Source of the DNA: a virus
Taxonomy: Duplodnaviria; Heunggongvirae; Uroviricota; Caudoviricetes
Virus record (IMG/VR): IMGVR_UViG_2703718837_000004
Strand: one strand, 5' to 3'
Length of the DNA: 15,008 nt
The notes under the pieces were generated by a model. The model saw only the letters and a list, made by a program, of their open reading frames with translations. It did not search any database and was not told where the DNA came from. Both the position numbers and the translations under genes were made by a program. Positions 1-15,008 of this stretch are shown piece after piece. The stretch's first letter is position 1. The number at the start of each line of letters is the position of its first letter.

Positions 1-318
1 ATGAAAAAGATAGCTGCTATATCATTAATTAGTATTTTTCTTATATCTGGTTGTGCTGTGCATAATGATGAAACAAGTATCGGTAAATTTGGTCTTGCAT
101 ATAAAAGTAATATTCAGCGTAAACTCGATAACCAATACTACACCGAAGCCGAAGCTTCTTTAGCCAGGGGTAGAATATCTGGTGCAGAAAATATAGTAAA
201 AAATGATGCAGCCCATTTCTGTGTTACTCAGGGCAAAAAAATGCAGATAGTTGACCTGAAGACAGAAGGTGCAGGATTACATGGCGTCGCTCGTCTGACA
301 TTCAAATGTGGAGAGTGA
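1..318 (+). CDS. yegR: Small lipoprotein (105 aa), chromosomal flank of the prophage site
   Basis: Complete ORF with an N-terminal signal peptide and lipobox (…FLISGC, Cys18). Size and position next to a P2-type attachment locus opposite yegQ match E. coli yegR as recalled from the K-12 map; symbol not verified by search. Confidence 0.6.
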   Translation: MKKIAAISLISIFLISGCAVHNDETSIGKFGLAYKSNIQRKLDNQYYTEAEASLARGRISGAENIVKNDAAHFCVTQGKKMQIVDLKTEGAGLHGVARLTFKCGE

Positions 319-477
319 GAATATTTTTTGGTAAGCGTCAAATATGCGCGTTCTGGCTGTGCGTAGCCGGAACCTGTGGGAGCACGATGCCGATAAGTGA
401 AAGGCATCGTGCTATGAAGGAGGATTCTATCGATGTGGTCAATGGAAGACGGTTACCAGAGATAGGGCTTATGCATA

Positions 478-497
478 AAAAAATAAGCCCGTGTAAG
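478..497. repeat. Partial att core (20 nt, aaaaaataagcccgtgtaag), left copy
   Basis: Exact 20-nt direct repeat of 13476-13495. The sequences diverge after ...gtaag (cag here, gga at the right copy). Matches the first 20 nt of the 27-nt P2 att core as recalled. Confidence 0.75.
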
Positions 498-1836
498 CAG
501 TGCGACCAACAGCACGTCTGAAACGCTCGCCGCAACACCAAAAGCTGTTAAGACGGTAATGGATGAAGCGAACAAAAAAGCGCCATTAAACAGCCCTGCA
601 CTGACCGGAACGCCAACGACGCCAACTGCGCGACAGGGAACGAATAATACTCAGATCGCAAACACGGCTTTCGTTATGGCCGCGATTGCCGCCATTGTAG
701 ACTCGTCGCCTGACGCACTGAATACGCTGAACGAGCTGGCGGCGGCGCTGGGCAATGACCCGAATTTTGCTACCTCCATGACTAATGCGCTTGCGGGTAA
801 GCAACCGAAAGATGCCACTCTGACGGCGCTGGCGGGGCTTGCTACTGCGGCAGACAGCTTTCCGTATTTTACGGGGAATGATGTTGCCAGTTTGGCAACC
901 CTGACAAAAGTCGGGCGGGATATTCTGGCTAAAGCGACCATTGCTGCCGTTATCGAATACCTCGGTTTGCAGGAAACGGTAAACAGGGCCAGGAACGCGG
1001 TGCAAAAGAATGGCGATACCTTGTCCGGCGGGATTACTTTTGAAAACGACTCAATCCTTGCCTGGATTCGAAATACTGACTGGGCGAAGATTGGATTTAA
1101 AAATGATGCCGATGGTGACGCTGATTCATACATGTGGTTTGAAACGGGGGATAACGGCAATGAATATTTCAAATGGAGAAGCCGCCAGAGTACCACAACA
1201 AAAGACCTGATGACGCTGAAATGGGATGCACTAAATATTCTTGTTAATGCCGTCATTAATGGCTGTCTTGGAGTTGGTACGACGAATGCACTAGGTGGTA
1301 GCTCTATTGTCCTTGGTGATAATGATACCGGATTTAAACAGAATGGAGACGGTATTCTTGATGTTTATGCTAACAGTCAGCGTGTATTCCGTTTTCAGAA
1401 TGGAGTGGCTATTGCTTTTAAAAATATTCAGGCAGGGGATAGTAAAAAGTTCTCGCTATCCAGCTCTAACACATCCACGAAGAATATTACCTTTAATTTA
1501 TGGGGTGCTTCCAACCGTCCAGTGGTTGCAGAGTTAGGCGATGAGTCCGGATGGCATTTCTATAGCCAGCGAAATACAGATAACTCGGTAATATTTGCTG
1601 TTAACGGTCAGATGCAACCCAGCAACTGGGGGAATTTTGATTCCCGCTATGTGAAAGATGTTCGCCTGGGTACGCGAGTTGTTCAATTGATGGCGCGAGG
1701 TGGTCGTTATGAAAAAGCCGGACACACGATTACCGGATTAAGAATCATTGGTGAAGTAGATGGCGATGATGAGGCCATCTTCAGGCCGATACAAAAATAC
1801 ATCAATGGCACATGGTATAACGTTGCGCAGGTGTAA
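496..1836 (+). pseudogene. H: Tail fiber protein H, 5'-truncated fragment (C-terminal ~2/3 of a P2 H-like protein)
   Basis: Reading frame opens straight out of the att core. Translation from 496 reads SSATNSTSETLAATPKAVKTVMDEANKKAPLNSPALTGTPTTP…, which is a mid-protein tail fiber repeat, and continues to …INGTWYNVAQV with stop at 1834-1836. No N-terminal baseplate-attachment region and no native start or RBS; the ORF-track start at 559 is an internal Met. Confidence 0.8.
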
Positions 1837-1839
1837 GTA

Positions 1840-2367
1840 ATGCAGCATTTAAAGAACATTAAGTCAGGTAATCCAAAAACAAAAGAGCAATATCAGCTAA
1901 CAAAGAATTTTGATGTTATCTGGTTATGGTCCGAAGACGGAAAAAACTGGTATGAGGAAGTAAGTAATTTTCAGCCAGACACAATAAAGATTGTTTACGA
2001 TGAAAATAATATTATTGTCGCCATCACCAGAGATGCTTCAACGCTTAATCCTGAAGGTTTTAGCGTCGTTGAGGTTCCTGATATTACTGCCAACCGGCGT
2101 GCTGATGACTCAGGTAAATGGATGTTTAAGGATGGTGCCGTGATTAAGCGGATTTATACGGCAGACGAACAGCAGAAACTAGCGGAATTACATAAGGCAG
2201 CTTTGCTTTCCGAAGCTGAATCCGTAATTTTGCCGCTGGAGCGCGCTGTCAGGCTGAATATGGCAACAGGTGAGGAGCGCAGTCGACTGGATGCATGGGA
2301 ACGCTACAGCGTTCTGGTCAGTCGTGTGGACCCTTCAAATCCTGAATGGCCGGACATGCCGCAATAA
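1840..2367 (+). CDS. G: Tail fiber assembly chaperone (P2 gpG-like, 175 aa)
   Basis: ATG 4 nt after the H stop with an AGGTG RBS. Length and sequence ([10 protein letters not shown]…EWPDMPQ) match P2 G as recalled; position immediately downstream of H is conserved. Confidence 0.9.
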
Positions 2368-2751
2368 GTTGTATGATCTCTGGAGTGAGCTAACGTATCT
2401 ATGGTACAGAGTAAAGCCTAATCTGACAGTCCGCTCCGAGTCAACAGCGGGAGTTGGAGTGCCAGATACTATCTAAAAGTTGATGGTTTCTTTTGTAGGG
2501 ATACCTACAGGCGCATTTGCACTTGAACAGTCAGAAGAACTCGACGAGACCGGCGTCGGCCAGAAAATGGCGAAGCCCGCATTTTCTACGACCGTTTGCA
2601 GGAACACTCTTGGATGTTACGTATAATAGTATGGTAGACCAGAATGACCGACAGCTTAGTGCTCAGACGGTGTAAAAAGGGAACGTTGCTAACGTTAATT
2701 TGTGTGATTAGTTGAAGGAATACTTATGCTGGTAACTATTTTTACTATTAA

Positions 2752-2769
2752 GGCCCTTGCTTTAGGGCC
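2752..2769 (-). terminator. Weak candidate terminator downstream of the RT gene
   Basis: Hairpin GGCCC-N8-GGGCC lying about 20 nt past the RT stop; on the minus strand it is followed by a moderately U-rich tract (UUAAUAGUAAAAAUAG). Confidence 0.3.
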
Positions 2770-2789
2770 AAAACATTAACTTTCTAAGG

Positions 2790-3887
2790 CTAGGGTTTTA
2801 GCAGTGCATTAGAAATTTCATCAATAATCACTGAGTATTTGGTGATTTCGTTTTCGTGAAAACATCTGAATTTATCATTAAATTTTACTAATGATATTAA
2901 ATATGAACGATAACCAGCTAACTTATTAGAGAATTGTGAATTATAAAAATCCGTTACAAACTGATCTGCATTGTTATTATACTTGACAGTTGGTGATTTA
3001 ACAGAAAATACTTTTTTGCAAATATGCTCTTTAGAATATCCCTTTTTAAATTTATCTAGTGCTTTCCGTATTAAATACATTTTTCCATTAGATATTCTTA
3101 TACTCCCTCTCTCTCCCCCTCCATTTTTATTTTCTATTACATAGCCGTTTAGTGAGATTATGCCTTTCTTAAATATTTTTTTATGTTTGTTGAGGGACAG
3201 TCCTGCCGTATTGACAATAGTTGATATCTCGTTGTCAAAATGTTCACTTCCAAGAAGTTTGTCTTTCCCGGAGCTCGAAAAAAGCATATCATCAGCATAA
3301 CGAGTGTAAATGATGCTTCTTTTGTCACACAAACTTTTAATTAAAATATCTAACTTTCTGAAAATTATATTGGATATGAAAGGTGATGTGGCGAATCCCA
3401 TTGGAAATATTTTTTTCTTTTTATTGTTGACTACAATCTCAATAGATAAACTATTTAAAAATGCATCAATAACTTTGATTTTTTTATTTACCAGATATTC
3501 ATCTTCAAAGTAGGATTTGAAACACTCCCTTGCAAAGTTATAGTTTATGTTATGAAAAAAATTACATAAGTCAATTCGACAAAAGTTCTCACCATGGATA
3601 TGAGGTTCTAGAAAATTCAAATAGTTTAATTTTTTACGATAGGCAATTGCAGGTGAGCTAAGAGGAACTTTTACTAGGAAATTTTTTATAAGTCTTTCTT
3701 GTATTTTTTTATGCGGGGAGCTTTTTCTTATAGTGAAACATAATCTATTCTTTAATGAAATGCTTTTATAATCGTCATTGGAAATCTCAGGGACTCCGTG
3801 AGTCATAATAATATCATCGGAGAATGTTTCTCTTAGATAAAAATTTTTATAAAAATCATTGTTAATTTTATTAATTTTATGTTTCAT
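2790..3887 (-). CDS. Reverse transcriptase (defence-associated type; retron-like or Abi-P2-like), 365 aa
   Basis: RT motifs readable in the translation: motif A …CRIDLCNFFHNI, motif B …FPMGFATSPFISNIIF, motif C …YTRYADDMLF (YADD). AGGAAG RBS 7-8 nt upstream of the ATG. Same strand as, and 120 nt downstream of, the OLD-like gene. Confidence 0.8.
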   Translation of the reverse strand: MKHKINKINNDFYKNFYLRETFSDDIIMTHGVPEISNDDYKSISLKNRLCFTIRKSSPHKKIQERLIKNFLVKVPLSSPAIAYRKKLNYLNFLEPHIHGENFCRIDLCNFFHNINYNFARECFKSYFEDEYLVNKKIKVIDAFLNSLSIEIVVNNKKKKIFPMGFATSPFISNIIFRKLDILIKSLCDKRSIIYTRYADDMLFSSSGKDKLLGSEHFDNEISTIVNTAGLSLNKHKKIFKKGIISLNGYVIENKNGGGERGSIRISNGKMYLIRKALDKFKKGYSKEHICKKVFSVKSPTVKYNNNADQFVTDFYNSQFSNKLAGYRSYLISLVKFNDKFRCFHENEITKYSVIIDEISNALLKP

Positions 3888-3893
3888 GTAAAA

Positions 3894-4043
3894 GCTTCCT
3901 CTTCGATACCAATAACATCTTTACACCCCGTGAGGCTTAAAGCGGCTTAGCGGACGCAAGACAATCCGAGCTAGTGTTTGCTGGAGCAAGTGACGGCATG
4001 CGTCAGCTCATTTGAGCCCTCCAGCTTCTATCGAAGAAGAAGC
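3894..4043 (-). ncRNA. Candidate structured ncRNA (retron msr-msd-like) bracketed by a 15-nt inverted repeat
   Basis: Arms at 3894-3908 (gcttcctcttcgata) and 4029-4043 (tatcgaagaagaagc). In the minus-strand transcript they pair over 15 positions (14 Watson-Crick plus one G.U); on the plus strand that position would be a C.A mismatch. Nested stems: gctggag 3980-3986 with ctccagc 4019-4025, and tgacg 3991-3995 with cgtca 4001-4005. Local G+C is clearly higher than in the flanking AT-rich genes. The distal arm sits immediately 5' of the RT start and contains its RBS; the proximal arm overlaps the last codons of the ATPase gene. Confidence 0.3.
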
Positions 4044-6272
4044 ATGATCGATGATATGCGAAATTTCAGGAAAAGCCAAGCGGAATTTTTTTTCGACATT
4101 TTCTTTATCTAGGGCTGAATAATGATTAAGGCTAAAATCAATGAAGCTTGTAACCCATCCAGAAGTCTTTCCTATGTAAGAACTCATAAAAGAGAAATTT
4201 TCTGACTTTAATGCTTTGATATAATCCAATATATCTTGCCGTATCGGTTTTTGATCAATTTTATAATGCATTTCTATACTTACAAGAGTTTCTGTTTTGC
4301 CACTAAAAATAAGGCGCAAGATAGCAACTTGGTCTTTTACGTCGGGGATGGTTTTTTTAAACTCATCAATTATTTCTTTAGCATATCTAATTTTAATGAT
4401 TTTCAATAATCTCATGTGTCGCAATGGTAGGTTATGATTTGTTTCACATTTTGAAAGTATTTTGGGAAAAAGTTGTTTTGATTGGGTTTTAATATCGTAT
4501 TTTTGCAGCAGAGCATTAATCATTTTTACAGGGTTTTTATTATTTACATTAAAGCTTCTCATTACTATGTCAATGATCCATAAAGAGAATGTCTCTAAAG
4601 AGAATTCATTGATCAATGAGCCTTCTATCGTTGTAGAAGTATAATAAACATTATCTTTAGAGGATAAAAAATTAACTGCGCTTATAACTCTGCCTATACT
4701 GAAGTGTCTGAATTTTAGGCCATTTTCACTGAATGTTACTTTCCTTTCATCTTGGCTTAAAAGAAATTTTGCTGCGTTAAGAAAAGGTTTTTGGTATGTC
4801 GAAAAATAGTGTAGTTTATCTCTCTTAATGATTTTATTAATAATTGATTTCCCTTTCGAATTAAATTTAAATTGTTCATGTTCGAAGTCAACAACGGCAA
4901 TCTGATCAATATCCTTTACTACTAGAAATGGGATGGCTGCATTTGAGTAGCTGGGGTTTATATTTTTCAACATTACTTCATCGCAATCATACACATCTAA
5001 CCTTTTAAGTACTGGAAACAGCTTTTGCAGATTATAATTTCTAAACAATTCAACTTCTGTGGCGCCCTCTACAAATAGAATGTATTCACTAAAGAATAGA
5101 CGGGCCTCATTATCGCTAAGCATATTTATAAATCTAATGTCATTATATTTAGAGTTTAATTTTGAAATTTTGGTCGAGTTGTCACGTTCTTTTGAAAAAT
5201 GCAAAACCTGCTGTTTATGTAAGAAAGATTTTAGCGTGAGTTTTAGTAAACTCGGAGAATGAGTGCTAAATATAAGAGTTGGATATGGTGTTGAATATTT
5301 TCCAGGCTCAATTTCCTCATGGGTTTTATCATACTTTTTATATGTCAGGCTTATGTTCTCAATAAAGTTCTCGCTAAGTTTTGGATGTAGCCCAATTTCA
5401 GGTTCATCAATATATATAATTGGATTGATAAATTCTGTTCTTGTTAATGAAATTAATAGGCTAAGTATAATTTCAAGATATTTGTGAGAGTTCGTGCCAT
5501 CCGACTGAACATGTAGTTCTTCACCTTTATTTATGAAAATATCGCCATCTAAAACTATTTTTAGATAATTAACGACTTTATCTTTATAGGTGTAAGGTTT
5601 AGTATGGATTACATTTTCAACTCTTTCTATATACTTCTTGTAACTACCCCGCTTAGTTGATATTTTCTCATTCAAAAACTCAAGGAGTTCTTCTTTTTTT
5701 ATTTCAGAGAAATTAAAGGAATTTATACTGCTGAGCATTTTCCATATGCTATTCCAGTCGTATAAGTCAATGTGTCTGGTTTCAATATGGAAAAAAGGAA
5801 ATAGAGTTTTAATTAGATGCCGGGCATTTGGTGTGCTAATTGACCAAGTTACGGAGTCATCTTTAGAAATTGTGAGTGTAATGCTATAAGTGCTTTTTCT
5901 TTGGAAACCCAAAGGAGATATGAAAGGAAGACAGAATTTCTGCGGCTTTCGGATGAATGATTGTGGCTTAAATAAAGTGTTATAAATATGCTTGTGAAAG
6001 CGACCATTGTTATTAGGGTTCATTACAATTCTCTTTATTCTTGTTACATCATAAGTCAATGTTATTGACCCTGAAGGAGTATAACTAGAATGAAAATCAG
6101 GAGGTATTACTTTTATGTCGTCAAGTTTGTCGTAAAAATATTTCAATATTTTCATAAGATTGGATTTGCCAACATTATTCATCCCTACAATGCAATTTAC
6201 ATCCTCTAGGGAATTTATTATTACATCATTAAATGATAGTAAGTTTTTTATTCTTATGCTTTGCAAACCCAT
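4008..6272 (-). CDS. OLD-family ABC-type ATPase / Toprim nuclease-like protein, 754 aa
   Basis: Walker A GMNNVGKS (aa 30-37), Walker B/D-loop IIYIDEPEIGLHP (aa ~285-297), H-loop FSTHSP (aa ~335-340). Toprim signature follows: ILFVEGATE (aa ~398-406) and FLVVKDIDQ (DxD, aa ~449-457). About 200 aa of C-terminal extension. RBS AAGGAA upstream of the ATG. Confidence 0.8.
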   Translation of the reverse strand: MGLQSIRIKNLLSFNDVIINSLEDVNCIVGMNNVGKSNLMKILKYFYDKLDDIKVIPPDFHSSYTPSGSITLTYDVTRIKRIVMNPNNNGRFHKHIYNTLFKPQSFIRKPQKFCLPFISPLGFQRKSTYSITLTISKDDSVTWSISTPNARHLIKTLFPFFHIETRHIDLYDWNSIWKMLSSINSFNFSEIKKEELLEFLNEKISTKRGSYKKYIERVENVIHTKPYTYKDKVVNYLKIVLDGDIFINKGEELHVQSDGTNSHKYLEIILSLLISLTRTEFINPIIYIDEPEIGLHPKLSENFIENISLTYKKYDKTHEEIEPGKYSTPYPTLIFSTHSPSLLKLTLKSFLHKQQVLHFSKERDNSTKISKLNSKYNDIRFINMLSDNEARLFFSEYILFVEGATEVELFRNYNLQKLFPVLKRLDVYDCDEVMLKNINPSYSNAAIPFLVVKDIDQIAVVDFEHEQFKFNSKGKSIINKIIKRDKLHYFSTYQKPFLNAAKFLLSQDERKVTFSENGLKFRHFSIGRVISAVNFLSSKDNVYYTSTTIEGSLINEFSLETFSLWIIDIVMRSFNVNNKNPVKMINALLQKYDIKTQSKQLFPKILSKCETNHNLPLRHMRLLKIIKIRYAKEIIDEFKKTIPDVKDQVAILRLIFSGKTETLVSIEMHYKIDQKPIRQDILDYIKALKSENFSFMSSYIGKTSGWVTSFIDFSLNHYSALDKENVEKKFRLAFPEISHIIDHASSSIEAGGLK

Positions 6273-6376
6273 GGGAGCGATTCCTTATAAAAATAAAACC
6301 TTGTATTCCTATAATTCGAGTGATGTCTCAACGGACTATTCGGAACAACTTTGGTTTATATAGCTCAAGTTTTTAT

Positions 6377-6400
6377 TCATTATTATGCATGTAATAATGA
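6377..6400. promoter_or_regulatory. Palindrome in the presumptive cargo promoter region (tcattatta-tgcatg-taataatga)
   Basis: Perfect 9-bp inverted repeat with a 6-bp spacer, 105-128 bp upstream of the ATPase start in AT-rich DNA. Operator-like; no cognate regulator gene is visible. Confidence 0.25.
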
Positions 6401-6648
6401 ATTACAAGTTTTCATTTTGCTTGGAATCAATTTTTTCACTCAGGTAAAGTAATTTTTGCGAGTGACTGTATGATACGGTCTCAATAGTATTAGAGCTTGA
6501 ATTCAGAATTGCAGTGATGCTCATTGTGCGGCTACTTTCACTGTATGCCATCCATGTCTGTTTCTCGCTCAAAGCAGGCTGTCAGATTTGATAGCGTTTT
6601 GGCTACGTATTTTGTCAGTTGGAAATTGAGAGAGTGCAAATCAAGGCT

Positions 6649-6675
6649 GGCGGGCTGATTGCCCGCCTTTTCTTT
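6649..6675 (+). terminator. Rho-independent terminator between the cargo island and the FI promoter region
   Basis: Stem GGCGGGC (6649-6655), loop tgatt, GCCCGCC (6661-6667), then TTTTCTTT. Would stop read-through from the H-G transcript before the F operon. Confidence 0.6.
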
Positions 6676-6771
6676 ATCTGTTGTTTCATCCACTGGCCAG
6701 CCAGGTCAAATAGCGTCTCATGCTCTGCACAACAGAAAATAGTTGCACCCATTAACCACGGAGTTAAACGG
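6676..6771 (+). promoter_or_regulatory. Presumptive late promoter region for the F operon (P_F-like)
   Basis: Placed by position only: between the terminator and the FI RBS (GGAG at 6761-6764). TGT triplets at 6679-6684 lie at roughly -55 if transcription starts about 30-40 nt upstream of FI, but an exact TGT-N12-ACA Ogr box is not present. Confidence 0.3.
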
Positions 6772-7962
6772 ATGAGTGACTATCATCATGGCGTGCAGGT
6801 GCTGGAGATTAACGACGGCACCCGCGTCATTTCCACCGTATCCACTGCCATTGTCGGCATGGTCTGCACGGCCAGCGATGCGGATGCGGAAACCTTCCCC
6901 CTCAATAAACCGGTGTTGATTACCAATGTGCAGAGCGCAATTGCAAAGGCCGGTAAAAAAGGCTCGCTGGCGGCATCGTTGCAGGCCATCGCCGACCAGT
7001 CAAAACCGGTCACCGTTGTCGTGCGTGTGGAAGACGGCACCGGCGACGACGAGGAAACGAAACTTGCGCAGACCGTTTCCAATATCATCGGCACCACCGA
7101 CGAAAACGGTCAGTACACCGGACTGAAAGCCCTGCTGGCGGCGGAGTCGGTAACCGGTGTTAAACCGCGTATTCTCGGTGTGCCGGGACTGGATACCAAA
7201 GAGGTGGCTGTTGCACTAGCATCCGTCTGTCAGAAGCTGCGCGCTTTCGGATATATCAGCGCATGGGGCTGTAAGACCATTTCCGAGGTGAAAGCCTACC
7301 GCCAGAATTTCAGCCAGCGTGAGCTGATGGTCATCTGGCCGGATTTCCTCGCATGGGATACGGTCACCAGTACCACCGCCACCGCGTATGCCACCGCCCG
7401 TGCGCTGGGTCTGCGCGCTAAAATCGACCAGGAGCAGGGCTGGCATAAAACGCTGTCCAACGTCGGGGTAAACGGTGTTACCGGCATCAGCGCATCTGTA
7501 TTCTGGGATTTGCAGGAGTCCGGCACCGATGCTGACCTGTTGAACGAGTCTGGCGTCACAACGCTGATTCGCCGCGACGGTTTCCGCTTCTGGGGTAACC
7601 GTACCTGCTCTGATGACCCGCTGTTCCTCTTTGAAAACTACACCCGCACCGCGCAGGTGCTGGCCGACACGATGGCTGAGGCGCACATGTGGGCGGTGGA
7701 CAAGCCCATCACCGCAACGCTGATTCGCGACATCGTTGACGGCATCAATGCCAAATTCCGTGAGCTGAAAACAAACGGCTATATCGTGGATGCGACCTGC
7801 TGGTTCAGCGAAGAATCCAACGATGCGGAAACCCTCAAGGCCGGAAAACTGTATATCGACTACGACTATACCCCGGTGCCTCCTCTCGAAAACCTGACCC
7901 TGCGCCAGCGTATTACCGATAAATACCTGGCAAATCTGGTCACCTCGGTTAACAGCAATTAA
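6772..7962 (+). CDS. FI: Contractile tail sheath protein (P2 gpFI-like, 396 aa)
   Basis: Start set at ATG 6772 (MSDYHHGVQVLEIN…) with a GGAG RBS 7 nt upstream. The ORF-track start at 6619 would run through the upstream terminator. Sequence matches P2 FI as recalled. Confidence 0.9.
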   Translation: MSDYHHGVQVLEINDGTRVISTVSTAIVGMVCTASDADAETFPLNKPVLITNVQSAIAKAGKKGSLAASLQAIADQSKPVTVVVRVEDGTGDDEETKLAQTVSNIIGTTDENGQYTGLKALLAAESVTGVKPRILGVPGLDTKEVAVALASVCQKLRAFGYISAWGCKTISEVKAYRQNFSQRELMVIWPDFLAWDTVTSTTATAYATARALGLRAKIDQEQGWHKTLSNVGVNGVTGISASVFWDLQESGTDADLLNESGVTTLIRRDGFRFWGNRTCSDDPLFLFENYTRTAQVLADTMAEAHMWAVDKPITATLIRDIVDGINAKFRELKTNGYIVDATCWFSEESNDAETLKAGKLYIDYDYTPVPPLENLTLRQRITDKYLANLVTSVNSN

Positions 7963-7974
7963 GGAGCCTGACCG

Positions 7975-8493
7975 ATGGCAATGCCGCGCAAACTCAAGTT
8001 AATGAACGTCTTTCTGAACGGCTACAGCTATCAGGGCGTTGCAAAGTCCCTCACGCTACCAAAACTGACCCGTAAGCTCGAAAACTATCGCGGTGCGGGG
8101 ATGAACGGCAGCGCACCGGTAGACCTCGGCCTTGATGACGATGCGCTGTCAATGGAGTGGTCGCTCGGTGGCTTCCCGGATTCGGTTATCTGGGAGCTTT
8201 ACGCAGCAACCGGCGTGGATGCCGTGCCGATTCGTTTTGCTGGCTCTTACCAGCGCGACGATACCGGCGAAACGGTTGCCGTCGAAGTGGTCATGCGTGG
8301 ACGTCAGAAAGAAATCGATACCGGCGAGGGTAAACAGGGAGAAGACACCGAGTCGAAAATCTCCGTGGTCTGTACCTATTTCCGGCTGACGATGGACGGT
8401 AAGGAGCTGGTCGAAATCGACACCATCAACATGATTGAGAAGGTGAACGGCGTCGACCGGCTGGAGCAACACCGCCGCAATATCGGCCTGTGA
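7975..8493 (+). CDS. FII: Tail tube protein (P2 gpFII-like, 172 aa)
   Basis: AGGAG RBS; MAMPRKLKLMNVFLNGYSYQGVAKS… matches P2 FII as recalled; conserved position after FI. Confidence 0.9.
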   Translation: MAMPRKLKLMNVFLNGYSYQGVAKSLTLPKLTRKLENYRGAGMNGSAPVDLGLDDDALSMEWSLGGFPDSVIWELYAATGVDAVPIRFAGSYQRDDTGETVAVEVVMRGRQKEIDTGEGKQGEDTESKISVVCTYFRLTMDGKELVEIDTINMIEKVNGVDRLEQHRRNIGL

Positions 8494-8549
8494 TTTTCAT
8501 CCGGTCAGCCTGGCTGACCGGTTAACCCTGATTCAGAAGTGAGAAAACC

Positions 8550-8825
8550 ATGAACAAAGAAAATGTGATTACCCTGGACAATCCGGTCAAACGTGGTGAG
8601 CAGGTTATCGAACAGGTCACGCTGATGAAACCCAGTGCCGGGACGCTGCGCGGTGTCAGTCTGGCTGCGGTCGCGAACTCCGAAGTCGATGCACTGATTA
8701 AGGTGCTGCCGCGCATGACTGCACCGATGCTGACCGAGCAGGAAGTCGCCGCACTGGAACTGCCTGACCTTGTGGCGCTGGCCGGTAAGGTGGTCGGTTT
8801 TTTGTCGCCGAACTCGGTGCAGTGA
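8550..8825 (+). CDS. E: Tail assembly chaperone E (P2 gpE-like, 91 aa)
   Basis: MNKENVITLDNPVKRGEQVIEQ…; GAGAAAACC upstream of the ATG. Contains the slippery heptamer near its 3' end. Confidence 0.85.
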   Translation: MNKENVITLDNPVKRGEQVIEQVTLMKPSAGTLRGVSLAAVANSEVDALIKVLPRMTAPMLTEQEVAALELPDLVALAGKVVGFLSPNSVQ

Positions 8826-8977
8826 CGTTCCCGAAAAATCTGTCGGTCGATGACCTGATGGCGGATGTGGCAGTGATATTTCACTGGCCGCCATCAGAAC
8901 TGTATCCCATGAGCCTGACCGAACTCATCACATGGCGCGAAAAGGCGCTCCGGCGAAGTGGAAGCACGAATGAGTAA
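8550..8977 (+). CDS. E': E+E' fusion chaperone produced by programmed -1 frameshift
   Basis: Slippery site T TTT TTG at 8798-8804 in E frame. The -1 frame continues from 8804 as VAELGAVTFPKNLSVDDLMADVAVIFHWPPSELYPMSLTELITWREKALRRSGSTNE to TAA at 8975-8977, overlapping the T start. Same arrangement as P2 E/E' and lambda G/GT. Confidence 0.7.
8798..8804 (+). other. -1 ribosomal frameshift slippery heptamer (T TTT TTG)
   Basis: X XXY YYZ motif in the E reading frame, followed by an open -1 frame of 57 codons. Confidence 0.7.
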
Positions 8978-11417
8978 CAATGTAAAATTACAGGTATTGC
9001 TCAGGGCTGTTGACCAGGCATCCCGCCCGTTTAAATCCATCCGTACAGCGAGCAGGTCGCTGTCGGGGGATATCCGGGAAACACAAAAATCACTGCGCGA
9101 GCTGAACGGTCACGCATCCCGTATTGAGGGATTCCGCAAGACCAGTGCACAGCTCGCCGTGACTGGTCATGCACTTGAAAAGGCACGGCAGGAAGCCGAA
9201 GCCCTTGCCACACAGTTTAAAAACACCGAACGTCCGACCCGTGCTCAGGCGAAAGTGCTGGAATCCGCAAAGCGTGCGGCGGAGGACTTACAGGCGAAAT
9301 ATAACCGCCTGACAGATTCCGTTAAACGCCAGCAGCGGGAACTGGCCGCTGTGGGAATTAATACCCGCAATCTTGCACATGATGAGCAGGGACTGAAAAA
9401 CCGTATCAGTGAAACCACCGCACAGCTTAACCGTCAGCGTGATGCGCTGGCGCGTGTCAGTGCGCAACAGGCAAAACTTAACGCAGTAAAACAGCGTTAT
9501 CAGGCCGGAAAGGAACTGGCCGGAAATATGGCCTCAGTGGGCGCTGCCGGTGTGGGGATTGCGGCGGCGGGAACGATGGCCGGTGTTAAGCTACTGATGC
9601 CCGGTTATGAGTTTGCGCAGAAAAACTCAGAATTGCAGGCCGTGCTAGGTGTGGCAAAAGACTCCGCCGAAATGGCCGCACTCCGCAAGCAGGCGCGCCA
9701 GCTCGGCGACAATACCGCCGCCTCGGCAGATGATGCAGCCGGTGCGCAGATTATTATTGCGAAAGCCGGTGGGGATGTTGATGCCATTCAGGCGGCAACG
9801 CCGGTCACGCTGAACATGGCGCTGGCGAACCGCCGCACGATGGAAGAAAACGCCGCCCTGTTGATGGGGATGAAATCCGCCTTTCAGCTTTCAAACGATA
9901 AGGTCGCTCATATCGGGGATGTTCTCTCCATGACGATGAACAAAACCGCCGCCGATTTTGACGGCATGAGCGATGCGCTGACCTATGCCGCACCTGTGGC
10001 AAAAAATGCCGGTGTCAGCATTGAAGAAACCGCCGCAATGGTCGGGGCGCTGCATGATGCAAAAATCACAGGCTCAATGGCGGGGACGGGAAGCCGTGCC
10101 GTGTTAAGCCGCCTGCAGGCACCGACGGGAAAAGCATGGGATGCACTGAAAGAGCTTGGTGTGAAAACCTCAGACAGCAAGGGAAACACCCGACCAATAT
10201 TTACCATTCTGAAAGAAATGCAGGCCAGTTTTGAGAAAAACCGGCTCGGTACTGCCCAGCAGGCTGAATACATGAAAACCATTTTCGGGGAGGAGGCCAG
10301 CTCAGCCGCCGCCGTGCTGATGACTGCCGCCTCAACCGGAAAGCTGGACAAACTGACCGCTGCGTTTAAAGCCTCAGACGGAAAGACCGCAGAGCTGGTT
10401 AAAATCATGCAGGATAACCTCGGCGGTGACTTTAAGGAGTTTCAGTCCGCTTATGAGGCGGTGGGGACAGACCTGTTTGACCAGCAGGAAGGCGCACTGC
10501 GTAAGCTCACTCAGACGGCCACAAAGTATGTGTTAAAACTCGACGGCTGGATACAGAAAAACAAATCACTGGCGTCAACCATCGGCCTCATTGTCGGTGG
10601 CGCACTGGCGCTGACTGGCATCATCGGTGCCATTGGTCTTGTAGCCTGGCCGGTTATCACCGGCATTAATGCCATCATCGCGGCAGCAGGCGCAATGGGG
10701 GCAATTTTCACGACGGTTGGCAGTGCTGTTATGACCGCCATCGGGGCGATTAGCTGGCCGGTTGTGGCCGTGGTGGCCGCCATTGTCGCCGGGGCGTTAC
10801 TTATCCGTAAATACTGGGAGCCTGTCAGCGCATTCTTTGGCGGTGTGGTGGAAGGGCTGAAAGCGGCATTTGCGCCGGTGGGGGAGCTGTTCACGCCACT
10901 GAAACCGGTGTTTGACTGGCTGGGCGAAAAGTTACAGGCTGCGTGGCAGTGGTTTAAAAACCTGATTGCCCCGGTCAAAGCCACTCAGGACACCCTGAAC
11001 AGTTGCCGTGACACGGGTGTCATGTTCGGGCAGGCACTGGCTGACGCGCTGATGCTGCCGCTTAATGCGTTCAACAAACTGCGCAGCGGTATTGACTGGG
11101 TACTGGAAAAACTCGGGGTTATCAACAAAGAGTCAGACACACTTGACCAGACCGCCGCAAGGACTCATGCCGCCACGTATGGCACCGGTGGTTATATTCC
11201 GGCGACCAGCTCTTATGCAGGTTATCAGGCTTATCAGCCGGTTACGGCACCGGCTGGCCGCTCTTATGTGGACCAGAGTAAAAACGAATATCACATCAGC
11301 CTGACGGGTGGTACTGCGCCGGGGACACAGCTTGACCGCCAGTTACAGGATGCGCTCGAAAAATACGAGCGGGATAAACGTGCGCGCGCCCGTGCCAGCA
11401 TGATGCATGACGGTTAA
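8970..11417 (+). CDS. T: Tail tape measure protein (P2 gpT-like, 815 aa)
   Basis: ATG at 8970 (MSNNVKLQVLLRAVDQ…) with a GGAAG RBS. The ORF-track start at 8958 is an in-frame upstream GTG. Long alanine/glycine-rich hydrophobic central segment typical of tape measure proteins. Confidence 0.85.
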   Translation: MSNNVKLQVLLRAVDQASRPFKSIRTASRSLSGDIRETQKSLRELNGHASRIEGFRKTSAQLAVTGHALEKARQEAEALATQFKNTERPTRAQAKVLESAKRAAEDLQAKYNRLTDSVKRQQRELAAVGINTRNLAHDEQGLKNRISETTAQLNRQRDALARVSAQQAKLNAVKQRYQAGKELAGNMASVGAAGVGIAAAGTMAGVKLLMPGYEFAQKNSELQAVLGVAKDSAEMAALRKQARQLGDNTAASADDAAGAQIIIAKAGGDVDAIQAATPVTLNMALANRRTMEENAALLMGMKSAFQLSNDKVAHIGDVLSMTMNKTAADFDGMSDALTYAAPVAKNAGVSIEETAAMVGALHDAKITGSMAGTGSRAVLSRLQAPTGKAWDALKELGVKTSDSKGNTRPIFTILKEMQASFEKNRLGTAQQAEYMKTIFGEEASSAAAVLMTAASTGKLDKLTAAFKASDGKTAELVKIMQDNLGGDFKEFQSAYEAVGTDLFDQQEGALRKLTQTATKYVLKLDGWIQKNKSLASTIGLIVGGALALTGIIGAIGLVAWPVITGINAIIAAAGAMGAIFTTVGSAVMTAIGAISWPVVAVVAAIVAGALLIRKYWEPVSAFFGGVVEGLKAAFAPVGELFTPLKPVFDWLGEKLQAAWQWFKNLIAPVKATQDTLNSCRDTGVMFGQALADALMLPLNAFNKLRSGIDWVLEKLGVINKESDTLDQTAARTHAATYGTGGYIPATSSYAGYQAYQPVTAPAGRSYVDQSKNEYHISLTGGTAPGTQLDRQLQDALEKYERDKRARARASMMHDG

Positions 11418-11431
11418 GGAGGTGACGAAAA

Positions 11432-11911
11432 ATGATGCTCGCGTTAGGTATGTTTGTTTTTATGCGCCAGACGCTGCCACACCAGACCATGCAGCGTGAA
11501 TCAGATTATCGCTGGCCGTCAAATTCCCGTATCGGTAAACGGGACGCTTTTCAGTTTCTCGGTGTGGGTGAGGAAAACATCACGCTGGCCGGTGTGCTTT
11601 ATCCCGAACTGACCGGCGGAAAGCTGACGATGACCACGCTCAGGATGATGGCAGAGGAAGGCCGGGCGTGGCCGTTGCTGGATGGCACCGGCATGATTTA
11701 CGGCATGTATGTCATCAGCAGGGTAAGTGAAACAGGGAGTATTTTCTTTGCAGACGGCACACCCCGGAAAATTGATTTTACGCTGTCGCTCACCCGCGTT
11801 GATGAATCACTGGCCGCGCTTTATGGCGATATCGGTAAACAGGCGGAATCGCTCATCGGTAAAGCTGGCAGTATGGCGACCAGATTCACGGGGATGACGG
11901 GGGCGGGATAA
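11432..11911 (+). CDS. U: Tail protein U (P2 gpU-like, 159 aa)
   Basis: AAGGAGG RBS 8 nt upstream; MMLALGMFVFMRQTLPHQ… matches P2 U as recalled. Confidence 0.9.
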   Translation: MMLALGMFVFMRQTLPHQTMQRESDYRWPSNSRIGKRDAFQFLGVGEENITLAGVLYPELTGGKLTMTTLRMMAEEGRAWPLLDGTGMIYGMYVISRVSETGSIFFADGTPRKIDFTLSLTRVDESLAALYGDIGKQAESLIGKAGSMATRFTGMTGAG

Positions 11912-13074
11912 TGCTGGATGCACTGACATTTGATGCAGGCAGTACGCTGACGCCGGATTACATGCTGATGCTCGACAGCAGGGATATTACCGGCAATATC
12001 AGCGACCGTCTGATGAGCATGACCCTGACGGATAACCGGGGCTTTGAGGCTGACCAGCTTGATATTGAACTGAACGATGCCGACGGGCAGGTCGGGCTAC
12101 CGGTTCGTGGCGCTGTCCTGACGGTGTATATCGGCTGGAAAGGTTTTGCCCTGGTATGCAAAGGGAAATTCACCGTTGATGAGGTTGAACACCGGGGCGC
12201 GCCGGATGTGGTCACCATCCGCGCCCGGAGTGCAGATTTTCGCGGGACGCTCAATTCCCGCCGGGAAGGCTCCTGGCATGACACCACACTCGGTGCGATT
12301 GTTGAAGCGATAGCCTCCCGTAACAGGCTGGAAGCCAGTGTCGCTCCGTCACTGGCCGGAATTAAAATCCCGCACATCGACCAGTCGCAGGAGTCTGATG
12401 CGAAATTCCTGACCCGTCTTGCAGAACGCAACGGCGGTGAGGTGTCGGTAAAAATGGGAAAACTGTTGTTTCTCAAAGCGGGGCAGGGGGTGACGGCCAG
12501 CGGTAAAAAAATCCCGCAGATTACCATCACCCGCAGCGACGGCGACCGTCATCATTTTGCGATTGCTGACCGTGGAGCTTACACCGGCGTAACGGCAAAG
12601 TGGTTACACACCAAAGACCCGAAGCCGCAAAAGCAGAAGGTAAAACTGAAACGCAAAAAGAAAGAAAAACACCTGCGCGCACTGGAGCACCCGAAAGCGA
12701 AACCGGTCACGCAGAAGAAAGCGCCAAAAGTACCGGAAGCGCGCGAAGGTGAATACATGGCCGGTGAGGCTGACAACGTTTTTGCCCTGACTACGGTATA
12801 TGCCACGAAAGCGCAGGCCATGCGCGCCGCTCAGGCGAAGTGGGATAAACTGCAACGGGGTGTGGCGGAGTTCTCCATCAGCCTGGCTACCGGTCGGGCA
12901 GATATTTACACGGAAACACCGGTTAAAGTGTCAGGCTTTAAGCGCGTCATAGACGAGCAGGACTGGACAATCACTAAGGTGACACATTTTCTGAATAATA
13001 GCGGCTTCACGACGTCCTTAGAGCTTGAGGTCAGGCTTTCTGATGTGGAGTACGAAACAGAAGATGATGAGTGA
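11911..13074 (+). CDS. D: Tail protein D (P2 gpD-like, 387 aa)
   Basis: Start overlaps the U stop (TAATG). Sequence matches P2 D as recalled. Contains a Lys-rich low-complexity segment (KPQKQKVKLKRKKKEKH…). Confidence 0.9.
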   Translation: MLDALTFDAGSTLTPDYMLMLDSRDITGNISDRLMSMTLTDNRGFEADQLDIELNDADGQVGLPVRGAVLTVYIGWKGFALVCKGKFTVDEVEHRGAPDVVTIRARSADFRGTLNSRREGSWHDTTLGAIVEAIASRNRLEASVAPSLAGIKIPHIDQSQESDAKFLTRLAERNGGEVSVKMGKLLFLKAGQGVTASGKKIPQITITRSDGDRHHFAIADRGAYTGVTAKWLHTKDPKPQKQKVKLKRKKKEKHLRALEHPKAKPVTQKKAPKVPEAREGEYMAGEADNVFALTTVYATKAQAMRAAQAKWDKLQRGVAEFSISLATGRADIYTETPVKVSGFKRVIDEQDWTITKVTHFLNNSGFTTSLELEVRLSDVEYETEDDE

Positions 13075-13155
13075 TGTTTTTATTTTATCTGTTTGTTTTA
13101 TAAGGATAAATTAACTAAAATGGCACCATCAATAAAACCGGAAGAGGTGCTCGCG

Positions 13156-13374
13156 ATGTTTCATTGTCCTTTATGCCAGCATGCCGCACATGCGCGTACA
13201 AGCCGCTATATCACTGACACGACAAAAGAGCGTTATCACCAGTGTCAGAACGTGAATTGCAGCGCCACGTTCATCACTTATGAGTCGGTACAGCGATACA
13301 TCGTGAAGCCGGGAGAAGTCCACGCCGTAAGGCCACACCCGTTGCCGTCAGGGCAGCAAATTATGTGGATGTAA
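13156..13374 (+). CDS. ogr: Late gene transcriptional activator Ogr (zinc-finger, 72 aa)
   Basis: MFHCPLCQHAAHARTSRYITDTTKERYHQCQNVNCSATF… with a CxxC…CxxxxC zinc-binding motif; matches P2 Ogr as recalled. The ORF-track start at 13093 is an upstream in-frame extension; AT-rich putative promoter at 13075-13125. Confidence 0.85.
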   Translation: MFHCPLCQHAAHARTSRYITDTTKERYHQCQNVNCSATFITYESVQRYIVKPGEVHAVRPHPLPSGQQIMWM

Positions 13375-13386
13375 TTACAAACAGAA

Positions 13387-13412
13387 AGCCCCTCAGTCGA
13401 GGGGCTTTTTTG
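13387..13412 (+). terminator. Rho-independent terminator downstream of ogr
   Basis: Stem AGCCCCTC (13387-13394), loop agtc, GAGGGGCT (13399-13406), then TTTTTTG. Confidence 0.6.
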
Positions 13413-13475
13413 TCGATGTGGTCAATGTGTGGACGTGACCAGAAATAAATCCTTTTATTTCAATTTGTTGTACGT

Positions 13476-13502
13476 AAAAAATAAGCCCGTGTAAGGGAGA
13501 TT
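13476..13502. repeat. att core (27 nt, aaaaaataagcccgtgtaagggagatt), right copy, overlapping the cyaR terminator
   Basis: Matches the P2 att core as recalled. The first 20 nt are repeated exactly at 478-497. Phage arm lies to the left, bacterial DNA (cyaR, yegQ) to the right. Confidence 0.75.
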
Positions 13503-13562
13503 ACACAGGCTAAGGAGGTGGTTCCTGGTACAGCTAGCATTTTATGGGTTATGTTTTTCAGC
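13476..13562 (-). ncRNA. cyaR: CyaR (RyeE) Hfq-dependent small RNA
   Basis: Minus-strand sequence GCUGAAAAACAUAACCCAUAAAAUGCUAGCUGUACCAGGAACCACCUCCUUAGCCUGUGUAAUCUCCCUUACACGGGCUUAUUUUUU matches the E. coli CyaR sequence as recalled. Includes the C/U-rich seed and a terminator hairpin plus U-tail whose 3' half is the att core. Confidence 0.7.
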
Positions 13563-13596
13563 GAAACGGATGATAACCTTAATAAATGCAGCTGTA

Positions 13597-13612
13597 TGTG
13601 ATCGGTTTCTAA
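13597..13612. promoter_or_regulatory. Putative CRP site and promoter of cyaR
   Basis: TGTGA-tcggtt-TCTAA (one good half-site) centred about 42 bp upstream of the inferred cyaR +1 at 13562. TATCAT -10 candidate at 13570-13575 on the minus strand. Consistent with CyaR being a CRP-activated class II promoter. Confidence 0.4.
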
Positions 13613-13646
13613 GAATTTTCCATCCGGGAAAAATAATCGAAATTAA

Positions 13647-15008
13647 TCACTTACCGTGGGGATTACGCGTGGTTTCCCCGGAGAAATTACGCATCAGCAG
13701 CGCGTAATTGAGCTCAAGATCCTGCGGGACCGGGAGCCACACAGTATAACCATCGCCTGGTGCTATCGGCATAGCTTCGCCTTTGGCGTTTTCCATGTGC
13801 TCAAGGGTAAAATTAATGTTGCCTTGCGGCGTCATCAGCTCAAGGCTGTCGCCAACGGAGAATTTATTTTTCACCGCTACCGCCGCGAGGTCCCCCTTGC
13901 GCTCACCGGTAAACTCACCAACAAACTGCTGGCGGTCAGAAACTGAATAACCGTATTCGTAGTTCTGATAATCGTCGTGAGTATGACGACGCAGGAAACC
14001 TTCGGTATAGCCACGATGCGCCAGACCTTCCAGAGTTTCCAGCAGGCTGGTATCGAACGGTTTTCCCGCAACGGCGTCATCGATAGCTTTGCGGTAAACC
14101 TGTGCGGTGCGTGCACAATAGTAGAAAGATTTGGTACGACCTTCGATTTTCAGCGAATGCACGCCCATTTTGGTCAGGCGTTCTACATGGGCGATGGCGC
14201 GCAGATCTTTCGAGTTCATGATGTAAGTGCCGTGCTCATCTTCAAACGCGGTCATATACTCGCCCGGACGCTGGGCCTCTTCGATCATAAACACTTTGTC
14301 GGTTGGTGCGCCGATACCCAGCGTCGGCTCAACATTTTGCACCGGAATCGGCTCGTACTTGTGTACGATGTTGCCAACATCATCTTCTTTCCCTTCCTGG
14401 ACGTTGTACTCCCAGCGGCAGGCGTTGGTGCAGGTGCCCTGGTTCGGGTCGCGCTTGTTGATATAGCCAGAGAGCAGGCAGCGACCGGAGTAGGCCATGC
14501 ACAGCGCGCCGTGAACGAAGATCTCGATCTCCATATCCGGCACCTGATTGCGGATCTCTTCAATCTCTTCCAGCGACAGCTCGCGAGAGAGGATCACGCG
14601 GGTCAGGCCCATTTGCTGCCAGAATTTCACCGTCGCCCAGTTCACGGCGTTAGCCTGCACCGAAAGGTGGATCGGCATTTCAGGGAAGTGCTCACGCACC
14701 AGCATAATCAGCCCTGGATCGGACATAATCAGCGCATCCGGCCCCATTTCCACCACCGGTTTCAGGTCACGGATAAAGGTTTTCAGCTTGGCGTTGTGCG
14801 GTGCAATGTTGACCACGACATAAAACTTTTTCCCCAGCGCGTGGGCTTCATTGATGCCGAGCTGAAGATTTTCGTGGTTGAATTCGTTGTTGCGCACACG
14901 CAGGGAATAACGCGGCTGGCCCGCATAAACAGCATCTGCGCCATAAGCGAAAGCGTAACGCATATTTTTCAGCGTTCCCGCCGGGGAAAGGAGTTCCGGT
15001 TTAAACAT
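13647..15008 (-). CDS. yegQ: U32-family peptidase-like protein YegQ (453 aa), complete
   Basis: Full ORF from ATG (15006-15008 on the minus strand) to stop. MFKPELLSPAGTLKNMRYAFAYGADAVYAGQPRYSLR… matches E. coli YegQ as recalled. Cys-rich region CMAYSGRCLLSGYINKRDPNQGTCTNACRW. Confidence 0.85.
   Translation of the reverse strand: MFKPELLSPAGTLKNMRYAFAYGADAVYAGQPRYSLRVRNNEFNHENLQLGINEAHALGKKFYVVVNIAPHNAKLKTFIRDLKPVVEMGPDALIMSDPGLIMLVREHFPEMPIHLSVQANAVNWATVKFWQQMGLTRVILSRELSLEEIEEIRNQVPDMEIEIFVHGALCMAYSGRCLLSGYINKRDPNQGTCTNACRWEYNVQEGKEDDVGNIVHKYEPIPVQNVEPTLGIGAPTDKVFMIEEAQRPGEYMTAFEDEHGTYIMNSKDLRAIAHVERLTKMGVHSLKIEGRTKSFYYCARTAQVYRKAIDDAVAGKPFDTSLLETLEGLAHRGYTEGFLRRHTHDDYQNYEYGYSVSDRQQFVGEFTGERKGDLAAVAVKNKFSVGDSLELMTPQGNINFTLEHMENAKGEAMPIAPGDGYTVWLPVPQDLELNYALLMRNFSGETTRNPHGK

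Follow-up and report, generated by a model that had tools for sequence, protein, structure and literature searches.

The attachment core of a decayed P2-like prophage overlaps the terminator of the CyaR small RNA in Escherichia coli

Results

Organization of the prophage remnant and its chromosomal setting

The window (the whole stretch of 15,008 nt that was analyzed) is E. coli chromosome in the order yegR, a 13-kb P2-like block, cyaR and trhP/yegQ. Positions 494-15008 are 99.88% identical, without a gap, to the locus of a full-length P2-like prophage in strain UPEC85. The names of the prophage genes between 1840 and 13074 were taken over from the UPEC85 annotation at a fixed offset and complemented by Pfam and PADLOC searches. 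The left flank and the prophage genes up to D are as follows:

1..318 (+): yegR, chromosomal flank, lipoprotein-like, 105 aa (K-12 and UPEC85 annotation; Logan gene call PF27694 YegR)
498..1836 (+): tail-fibre gene H, P2-like, 5'-truncated (Pfam Phage_fiber_2, Gp34_trimer)
1840-2367 (+): G (UPEC85 annotation)
2790-3887 (-): reverse transcriptase of a type I-B (Eco8-like) retron (PADLOC RT_I-B, 2.7e-106)
4008-6272 (-): retron ATPase-Toprim/OLD-like effector (PADLOC ATPase-Toprim_I-B, 1.6e-210; RefSeq 'retron Eco8 family effector endonuclease')
6772-7962 (+): FI, sheath (UPEC85 annotation)
7975-8493 (+): FII, tube (UPEC85 annotation)
8550-8977 (+): E/E' (UPEC85 annotation)
8970-11417 (+): T (UPEC85 annotation)
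11432-11911 (+): U (UPEC85 annotation)
11911-13074 (+): D (UPEC85 annotation)

The truncated H gene retains 449 in-frame codons counted from 487, compared with 625 aa for the full-length protein in UPEC85. The int, C and cox genes and the replication, head, lysis and baseplate genes are absent from the remnant. The type I-B retron occupies the variable locus between G and FI and persists despite the defective state of the prophage; within the retron region (2790-6272) a search against Rfam at the gathering threshold returned nothing.

Two candidate phage genes at the left end were rejected. yegR matches a PHROG family (phrog_21109, 2.9e-71), but the only phage records with yegR are prophage-derived entries that include host flanks, and the match is therefore no evidence of phage origin. 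Among the cyaR loci that we compared across species, yegR was seen in E. coli only, and in the divergent E. coli strain L066 it is just 65% identical. An open reading frame at 306-521, which crosses the left repeat copy described below, was considered as an Ogr-like gene; it has no Pfam match and was treated as spurious.

The cyaR gene, its terminator and its promoter

The right part of the window carries a small RNA gene and its upstream neighbor:

13476..13562 (-): cyaR (ryeE) sRNA gene, 87 nt, identical to K-12 b4438 (Rfam RF00112)
13476..13511 (-): CyaR intrinsic terminator (terminator scan; RNAfold hairpin of -15.9 kcal/mol)
13570-13575: -10 box of cyaR, TATCAT, downstream of the CRP-like site (read from the sequence)
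13597..13612 (-): CRP-like site TGTGA-N6-TCTAA, TGTGATCGGTTTCTAA (pattern search; two mismatches overall, one perfect half-site)
13647..15008 (-): trhP/yegQ, chromosomal flank, upstream of cyaR (locus annotation)

When the whole window was scanned against Rfam at the gathering threshold, a single match was obtained, CyaR/RyeE (RF00112), at 13564..13479 on the minus strand. It spans model positions 1-85 of 85 and scores 100.7 bits (E=1.4e-19), the gathering score of the family being 47. From 13476 rightward the window agrees with K-12 over 595 consecutive bases, which include cyaR and its promoter, and we took both ends of the RNA from the K-12 annotation (5' end at 13562). The first-pass annotation had named this RNA CyaR, and both the covariance model and the alignment to the K-12 gene bear this out. 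The gene lies downstream of trhP on the same strand, which is the conserved position of CyaR; yegQ is also encoded in 113 of the 120 stretches found by a cyaR-motif scan.

The terminator stem (13511..13484) consists of 11 pairs, AGCCUGUGUAA / UUACACGGGCU, with one U-G wobble, and is closed by a loop of 6 nt (UCUCCC) and followed by the tail UAUUUUUU at 13483..13476. This is a Rho-independent terminator with a U-tail, the putative Hfq-binding module of the RNA. Upstream of the gene, the CRP-like site is centered at -42.5 relative to the K-12 5' end. The motif alone is not above chance (6 found versus 6.0 expected in the window), and it is the position of the site, together with the reported control of cyaR by CRP (PMC3333887), that gives it meaning. 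The half-site that had been noted upstream of the gene is thus present, as one perfect half.

The 27-bp core and the right junction

To the left of cyaR we found the following P2 features:

13156..13374 (+): ogrK, P2 late-gene activator Ogr, convergent with cyaR (Pfam Ogr_Delta, 1.1e-21; UPEC85 RefSeq annotation)
13385..13408 (+): terminator of ogr and the F operon (P2 annotation, scan); also a minus-strand hairpin 68 nt past the CyaR U-tail
13413-13440 (+): P2 P arm, Int arm-type sites TGTGGTCA / TGTGGACG (coordinates transferred from the P2 annotation)
13444-13477 (+): P2 P arm, IHF site (P2 protein_bind features, alignment; P arm overall 13413..13477)
13476..13502: P2 attR core, 27 bp, AAAAAATAAGCCCGTGTAAGGGAGATT (identical to the annotated P2 attP core, NC_001895 24356-24382)

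The 20-bp sequence AAAAAATAAGCCCGTGTAAG occurs twice as an exact repeat (D11), at 478-497 and at 13476-13495. Its reverse complement reads C + UUACACGGGCU + UAUUUUUU and corresponds, in terms of the terminator, to the final base of the loop, the complete 3' half-stem and the U-tail. This fits the proposal made from the sequence alone that the attachment core coincides with the 3' half-stem plus U-tail of CyaR, although the true core is longer: the right copy makes up the first 20 nt of the 27-bp P2 core (13476-13502), which takes in the U-run and UA, the entire 3' half-stem, all six bases of the loop and, of the 5' half-stem, the first 3 nt. Homology to P2 (98%) extends across ogr and its terminator, the P arm and the core, and breaks off precisely at 13502. 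The P arm adjoins the core on the ogr side, is 98% identical to P2 and contains the IHF site as well as the Int arm-type sites, for which the consensus tgTGGaCa has been given (PMC3448106).

Both the unoccupied site and an intact form of the prophage were found in other strains. The empty attB that we rebuilt from the flanks of the window matches NCTC9038 with 100% identity over 503 bp in a single alignment piece. UPEC85 carries the same prophage intact, with full-length H and int, and its attL is composed of the B arm, the 27-bp core and a P' arm identical to that of P2. We read the right junction in the window as the attR of a P2-like prophage that occupies the principal P2 site of E. coli, the 3' end of cyaR, a gene reported to depend on CRP, and assign this reading a probability of about 0.92.

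The core in the window shows no difference from K-12 or from empty-site strains, and cyaR and its promoter are likewise identical; an altered CyaR is therefore not expected here. Compared with the empty site, the 3' end differs only in the length of the U-run and in the phage P arm that takes the place of the B arm. The U-run comprises 6 nt at attR, 7 in the left flank of the window and in NCTC9038, and 6 in the attL of UPEC85 and in L066.

A reporter study found ~41% intrinsic read-through at the CyaR terminator (PMC9765468), and the downstream DNA may for this reason matter for read-through transcripts. In a lysogen, such read-through may run antisense toward the ogr terminator hairpin. An inverted repeat, GGGCTTAT-N10-ATAAGCCC, at 465-490 of the window spans the B arm and the core. 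In read-through RNA from the empty site the 3' half-stem could pair into this alternative hairpin; at attR, phage DNA replaces its partner.

Hybrid terminators and the position of the crossover

In the window itself the crossover is hidden, because the cores of phage and host are identical, and the phage origin of specific bases rests on hybrid junctions found elsewhere. We scanned IMG/VR with the P-arm motif and obtained 88 junctions in which a P arm abuts cyaR. The E. coli core is present in 64 of them, and in another 18 the core matches the stem variant of the respective host. The other six are hybrids. Four of these, with two different phage arms, come from E. coli hosts (L135, L150, L180, L193) and have a flank that is 97.5-99.3% identical to the window. 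They combine the 5' half AGCCUGUGUAA with the 3' half UUACGCAGGCU, by which the U-G wobble is relocated, and their predicted stability is -15.8 versus -15.5 kcal/mol. The two hybrids from an Enterobacter-like host (L139, L219) carry a P arm identical to that of the window. Here the host 5' half AGCCUGCGUAA is joined to the P2 3' half UUACACGGGCU, which leads to a C·A mismatch and a predicted stability of -11.6 versus -17.7 kcal/mol.

Without exception, the 3' half in these hybrids corresponds to the phage arm and the 5' half to the host flank, which shows that the 3' half-stem comes from phage DNA. The first-pass annotation had held that the prophage provides the 3' end of CyaR, and this agrees with the hybrid junctions, with the P2 homology up to 13502 and with the empty site of NCTC9038. 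Its further suggestion, that sequence differences inside the core could alter CyaR, has a basis in the hybrids of other lysogens but does not apply to the window, whose core equals that of K-12.

Among the variable positions of the hybrids, the equivalents of 13488 and 13490 follow the phage and the equivalent of 13505 follows the host. Together with the limit of the 27-bp identity, this points to the following interval, which is to be read as an estimate from junction sequences and not as a mapped cleavage site:

13491..13502: putative strand-exchange interval GTAAGGGAGATT, left stem edge and loop (hybrids and 27-bp identity limit)

Tyrosine integrases bind inverted repeats that flank a short overlap region, and strand exchange confined to 13491-13502 would fit this general rule. 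Cleavage positions of P2 Int were not found in the literature that we searched.

The left copy as a deletion scar

The left end of the remnant shows two further elements:

428..464 (+): chromosomal B arm (aligns to the phage P arm at 13412-13447, including one Int arm-type site)
478..497: truncated attL core, first 20 of 27 nt, joined at TAAG into the interior of gene H (repeat D11)

The left core ends after nt 20 (…GTGTAAG) and continues straight into the H interior, CAGTGCGACC…, whereas intact H reads …CAGTTAAGCAGTGCG… and shares the 4-nt microhomology TAAG with the junction. The left copy thus comprises 20 of 27 nt because a deletion cut the core. A terminator scan of 300-700 revealed no terminator-like site on either strand, and folding of the left copy gave no CyaR-like hairpin; being a truncated attL, the copy would never carry the 5' half-stem. 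The earlier statement that no terminator can form from the left copy is therefore correct, and the copy is best described as a deletion scar. As the last 7 nt of the core, the P' arm and int are lacking at this end, the window contains no attL to match its attR, and the prophage is a defective remnant rather than an excisable one. With the genes from int through the baseplate gone, neither excision nor particles are to be expected.

For comparison we counted junctions over 5,426 complete E. coli genomes. The attR junction (P arm plus cyaR) is found in 1,222 genomes, an intact attL in 817 and the left junction of the K-12 type in 356. Phage DNA hence abuts cyaR in ~22% of complete E. coli genomes, among them K-12, the strain used to characterize CyaR. 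With the break marked by a slash, the K-12 left junction reads …GTGTA/GCAGAG and leads into gene D, while that of the window reads …GTGTAAG/CAG and leads into gene H. The two breaks are independent events with different internal partners that lie a few bases apart in the attL core (at 491-498 in the window and at about 3312-3320 in the K-12 stretch, L002), and both fall inside the putative strand-exchange interval. The partner site in K-12 D is partly core-like (GTGTGGCGGAGTT versus GTGTAAGGGAGATT).

Prophages in two other assemblies were inspected as well. We considered the prophage at cyaR in E. coli B REL606 (L125) as a third case of a deletion anchored in the core and rejected it, since attL and int are intact there and the deletions are internal (tube to D, and the portal region); its cargo is an ABC-three-component system and a glycosyltransferase. 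A Logan contig (SRR25713566, L127) encodes the same 425-aa truncated H product in another context, with a portal gene fused just upstream of the ATG equivalent to window position 559, and may represent either a chimeric contig or one more rearranged remnant of the P2 type.

Several other explanations of the two copies have to be weighed against a deletion scar. An exact direct repeat that brackets a coherent block of tail genes together with a defence system might mark the working ends of a small, still excisable 13-kb integrative element (a satellite or a tail-only 'tailocin' cassette). We regard this as highly improbable: neither an integrase nor an excisionase lies between the repeats, the left copy has lost the end of the core along with all of the P' arm, the block begins with the 5'-truncated H and is devoid of the baseplate genes V, W, J and I, and the same DNA forms part of the full-length prophage in UPEC85. 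The repeat is short, which is all that speaks for a chance match unrelated to integration, and such a match can be dismissed, given that ~1e-4 exact 20-mer repeats are expected in 15 kb (our own arithmetic), that the P2 annotation places the attP core at the right copy and that the left copy sits at the chromosomal attL position of UPEC85 and K-12. The left junction (yegR, 20-nt core, 'H) might also have been created during assembly, since it occurs in exact form in 0 of the 5,426 complete genomes. However, the identical junction is present in the independent Logan SRA assemblies SRR11948938 (4,836 bp identical) and ERR3469035, from which we conclude that it is real and belongs to a rare lineage; the clean microhomology and the parallel to the accepted K-12 remnant junction likewise make an artefact hard to believe.

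The part played by the integrase in the deletion is a more even matter. Microhomology-mediated illegitimate recombination without Int would make the position of the scar in the core a coincidence, and we put the chances of this somewhat below even. It accords with the mere four nucleotides common to the core and H, with the otherwise dissimilar H site and with the internal decay of the REL606 prophage beside an intact attL and int. Less easily reconciled with it are the two independent breaks so close together in the core (n=2), their location in the interval defined by the hybrids and the core-like character of the K-12 D site. For the deletion scar in the attL core that we favor, these two cases hint at a working hypothesis in which abortive Int cleavage at attL starts such deletions, and they suggest that one way for a prophage to become locked in place is through abortive Int reactions.

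The cyaR site beyond E. coli and a possible fossil arm

A motif scan with one genome per species yielded 115 cyaR loci in Enterobacterales. In 9 of the 115 a P2-type P arm directly follows the U-tail; the taxa include Citrobacter, Buttiauxella, Enterobacter, E. albertii and Salmonella diarizonae. The cyaR gene is therefore a P2-family attachment site well beyond E. coli. No second core copy was found near cyaR in the nine other species with a P arm, within blocks of 8 kb. Loci with intact or decayed P2-type P arms are L035, L052, L077, L087, L098, L108, L112 and L116; the core variants at the loci of other species track the local stem sequence, and the remnant in Citrobacter youngae is rearranged and uninformative.

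The chromosomal B arm to the left of the scar resembles the phage P arm (repeat D4, 75%; local alignment score 38, z=10.5, reached in 0 of 2000 shuffles), and the same B arm is present in K-12 and in the divergent strain L066. From this resemblance and distribution, the nominally empty attB of E. coli looks like a fossil attR, which suggests an older P2-like prophage at the same place. A hairpin at 383-413 sits where the ogr terminator would be. We also considered the P-arm-like sequence as the end of a second prophage in tandem, with the left copy as its boundary. This was rejected because 1-318 is chromosomal yegR and because the same arm occurs in K-12 and in empty-site strains; an old relic is the better description.

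If the empty site is indeed a fossil attR, an ancient prophage could be the source of the 3' half-stem and U-tail, U-G wobble included, that CyaR has throughout E. coli. More broadly, phages of the P2 family may long have used the CyaR terminator as a landing pad across Enterobacteriaceae, and phage traffic may rewrite the 3' end of the sRNA. We put this forward tentatively, as an idea that is rather more likely to be wrong than right.

Discussion

The history of the locus may be pictured as follows. P2 integrase would recombine the 27-bp attP core with its identical counterpart in cyaR. The two core-type binding sites for Int, one on each arm of the stem, probably arise from the dyad symmetry of the terminator, and the loop is the probable place of strand exchange. 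In the integrated state, cyaR would consist of host DNA from its 5' end as far as the loop, and the 3' half-stem, the U-tail and everything beyond (core, P arm, ogr) would be phage DNA; as the core is identical, CyaR would be rebuilt unchanged. A later loss of ~20 kb, from the interior of the attL core to the middle of H and possibly with participation of Int, took away int, cox and C as well as the genes for replication, head, lysis and baseplate. What is left is a non-excisable 13-kb remnant composed of 'H, G, the retron, the tail genes and ogr.

That cyaR/ryeE is an integration site of P2 is already known, and the window rediscovers an arrangement that had been documented before. For the P2-type elements of E. 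coli W, K-12 ('ogr-D'') and B, Archer et al. give 'cyaR RNA' as the insertion site (PMC3032704), Bobay et al. refer to Wassarman 2001 when they describe ryeE in E. coli as 'previously known to be targeted by phages' (PMC3603311), and in the annotation of the K-12 record (EcoCyc-style) the cryptic prophage PR-X starts inside cyaR. Among the open-access papers that we searched, none combines CyaR with details of the P2 att site. The same search gave no description of hybrid terminators or of the fossil arm, and we make no claim that these are unpublished.

For the window itself the consequences are small, since CyaR is unchanged and the locus documented; the finding explains the locus. It also means that in the reference K-12 the phage-derived DNA starts at or inside the CyaR terminator. 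With about one in five complete genomes including K-12 in this state, comparisons with a 'prophage-free' strain need a true empty-site strain. Phages with a non-matching core leave hybrid terminators, with a relocated wobble in E. coli and a C·A mismatch in the Enterobacter-like host. Lysogens with such mismatched halves are natural test cases for the effects of terminator strength and U-tail context on an Hfq-dependent sRNA, and they allow the P2 crossover point to be read from sequence.

The closest known relative of the arrangement is the PR-X remnant of K-12 (ogrK-yegZ, 'ogr-D''), which has the same site, 27-bp core, P arm, ogr and cyaR sequence as the window, and in which the left-side deletion likewise starts inside the attL core. 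The K-12 remnant is 0.6 kb long and reaches from the D interior to ogr, whereas that of the window measures 13 kb, reaches from the H interior to ogr and contains a retron; the core breakpoint of the window lies 1 nt further right than that of K-12, and the internal partner is H instead of D.

More distant parallels are offered by phage 186, which integrates in tRNA-Ile, and by Fels-2 and SopE-phi, which integrate in ssrA. Phages with tyrosine integrases target the 3' ends of stable RNA genes in general, where the gene is rebuilt from the phage copy (PMC3448106, PMC3603311). As in these tRNA and tmRNA cases, the target in cyaR is a conserved symmetric stem-loop at the 3' end of an RNA, the 3' part of which is carried by the phage. 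Unlike them, the stem-loop is here the Rho-independent terminator of an Hfq-dependent sRNA, and the duplicated part amounts to only 27 bp and includes the U-tail. Among small and structured RNAs, the sdsR/ryeB locus is an integration site in Salmonella (PMC3333887, PMC3603311), and ffs (4.5S RNA) is named as the att site of the Enterococcus phage phiEf11 (PMC12540744). These hot spots share with cyaR the use of short identical cores, and differ from it in the RNAs, phages and integrases involved.
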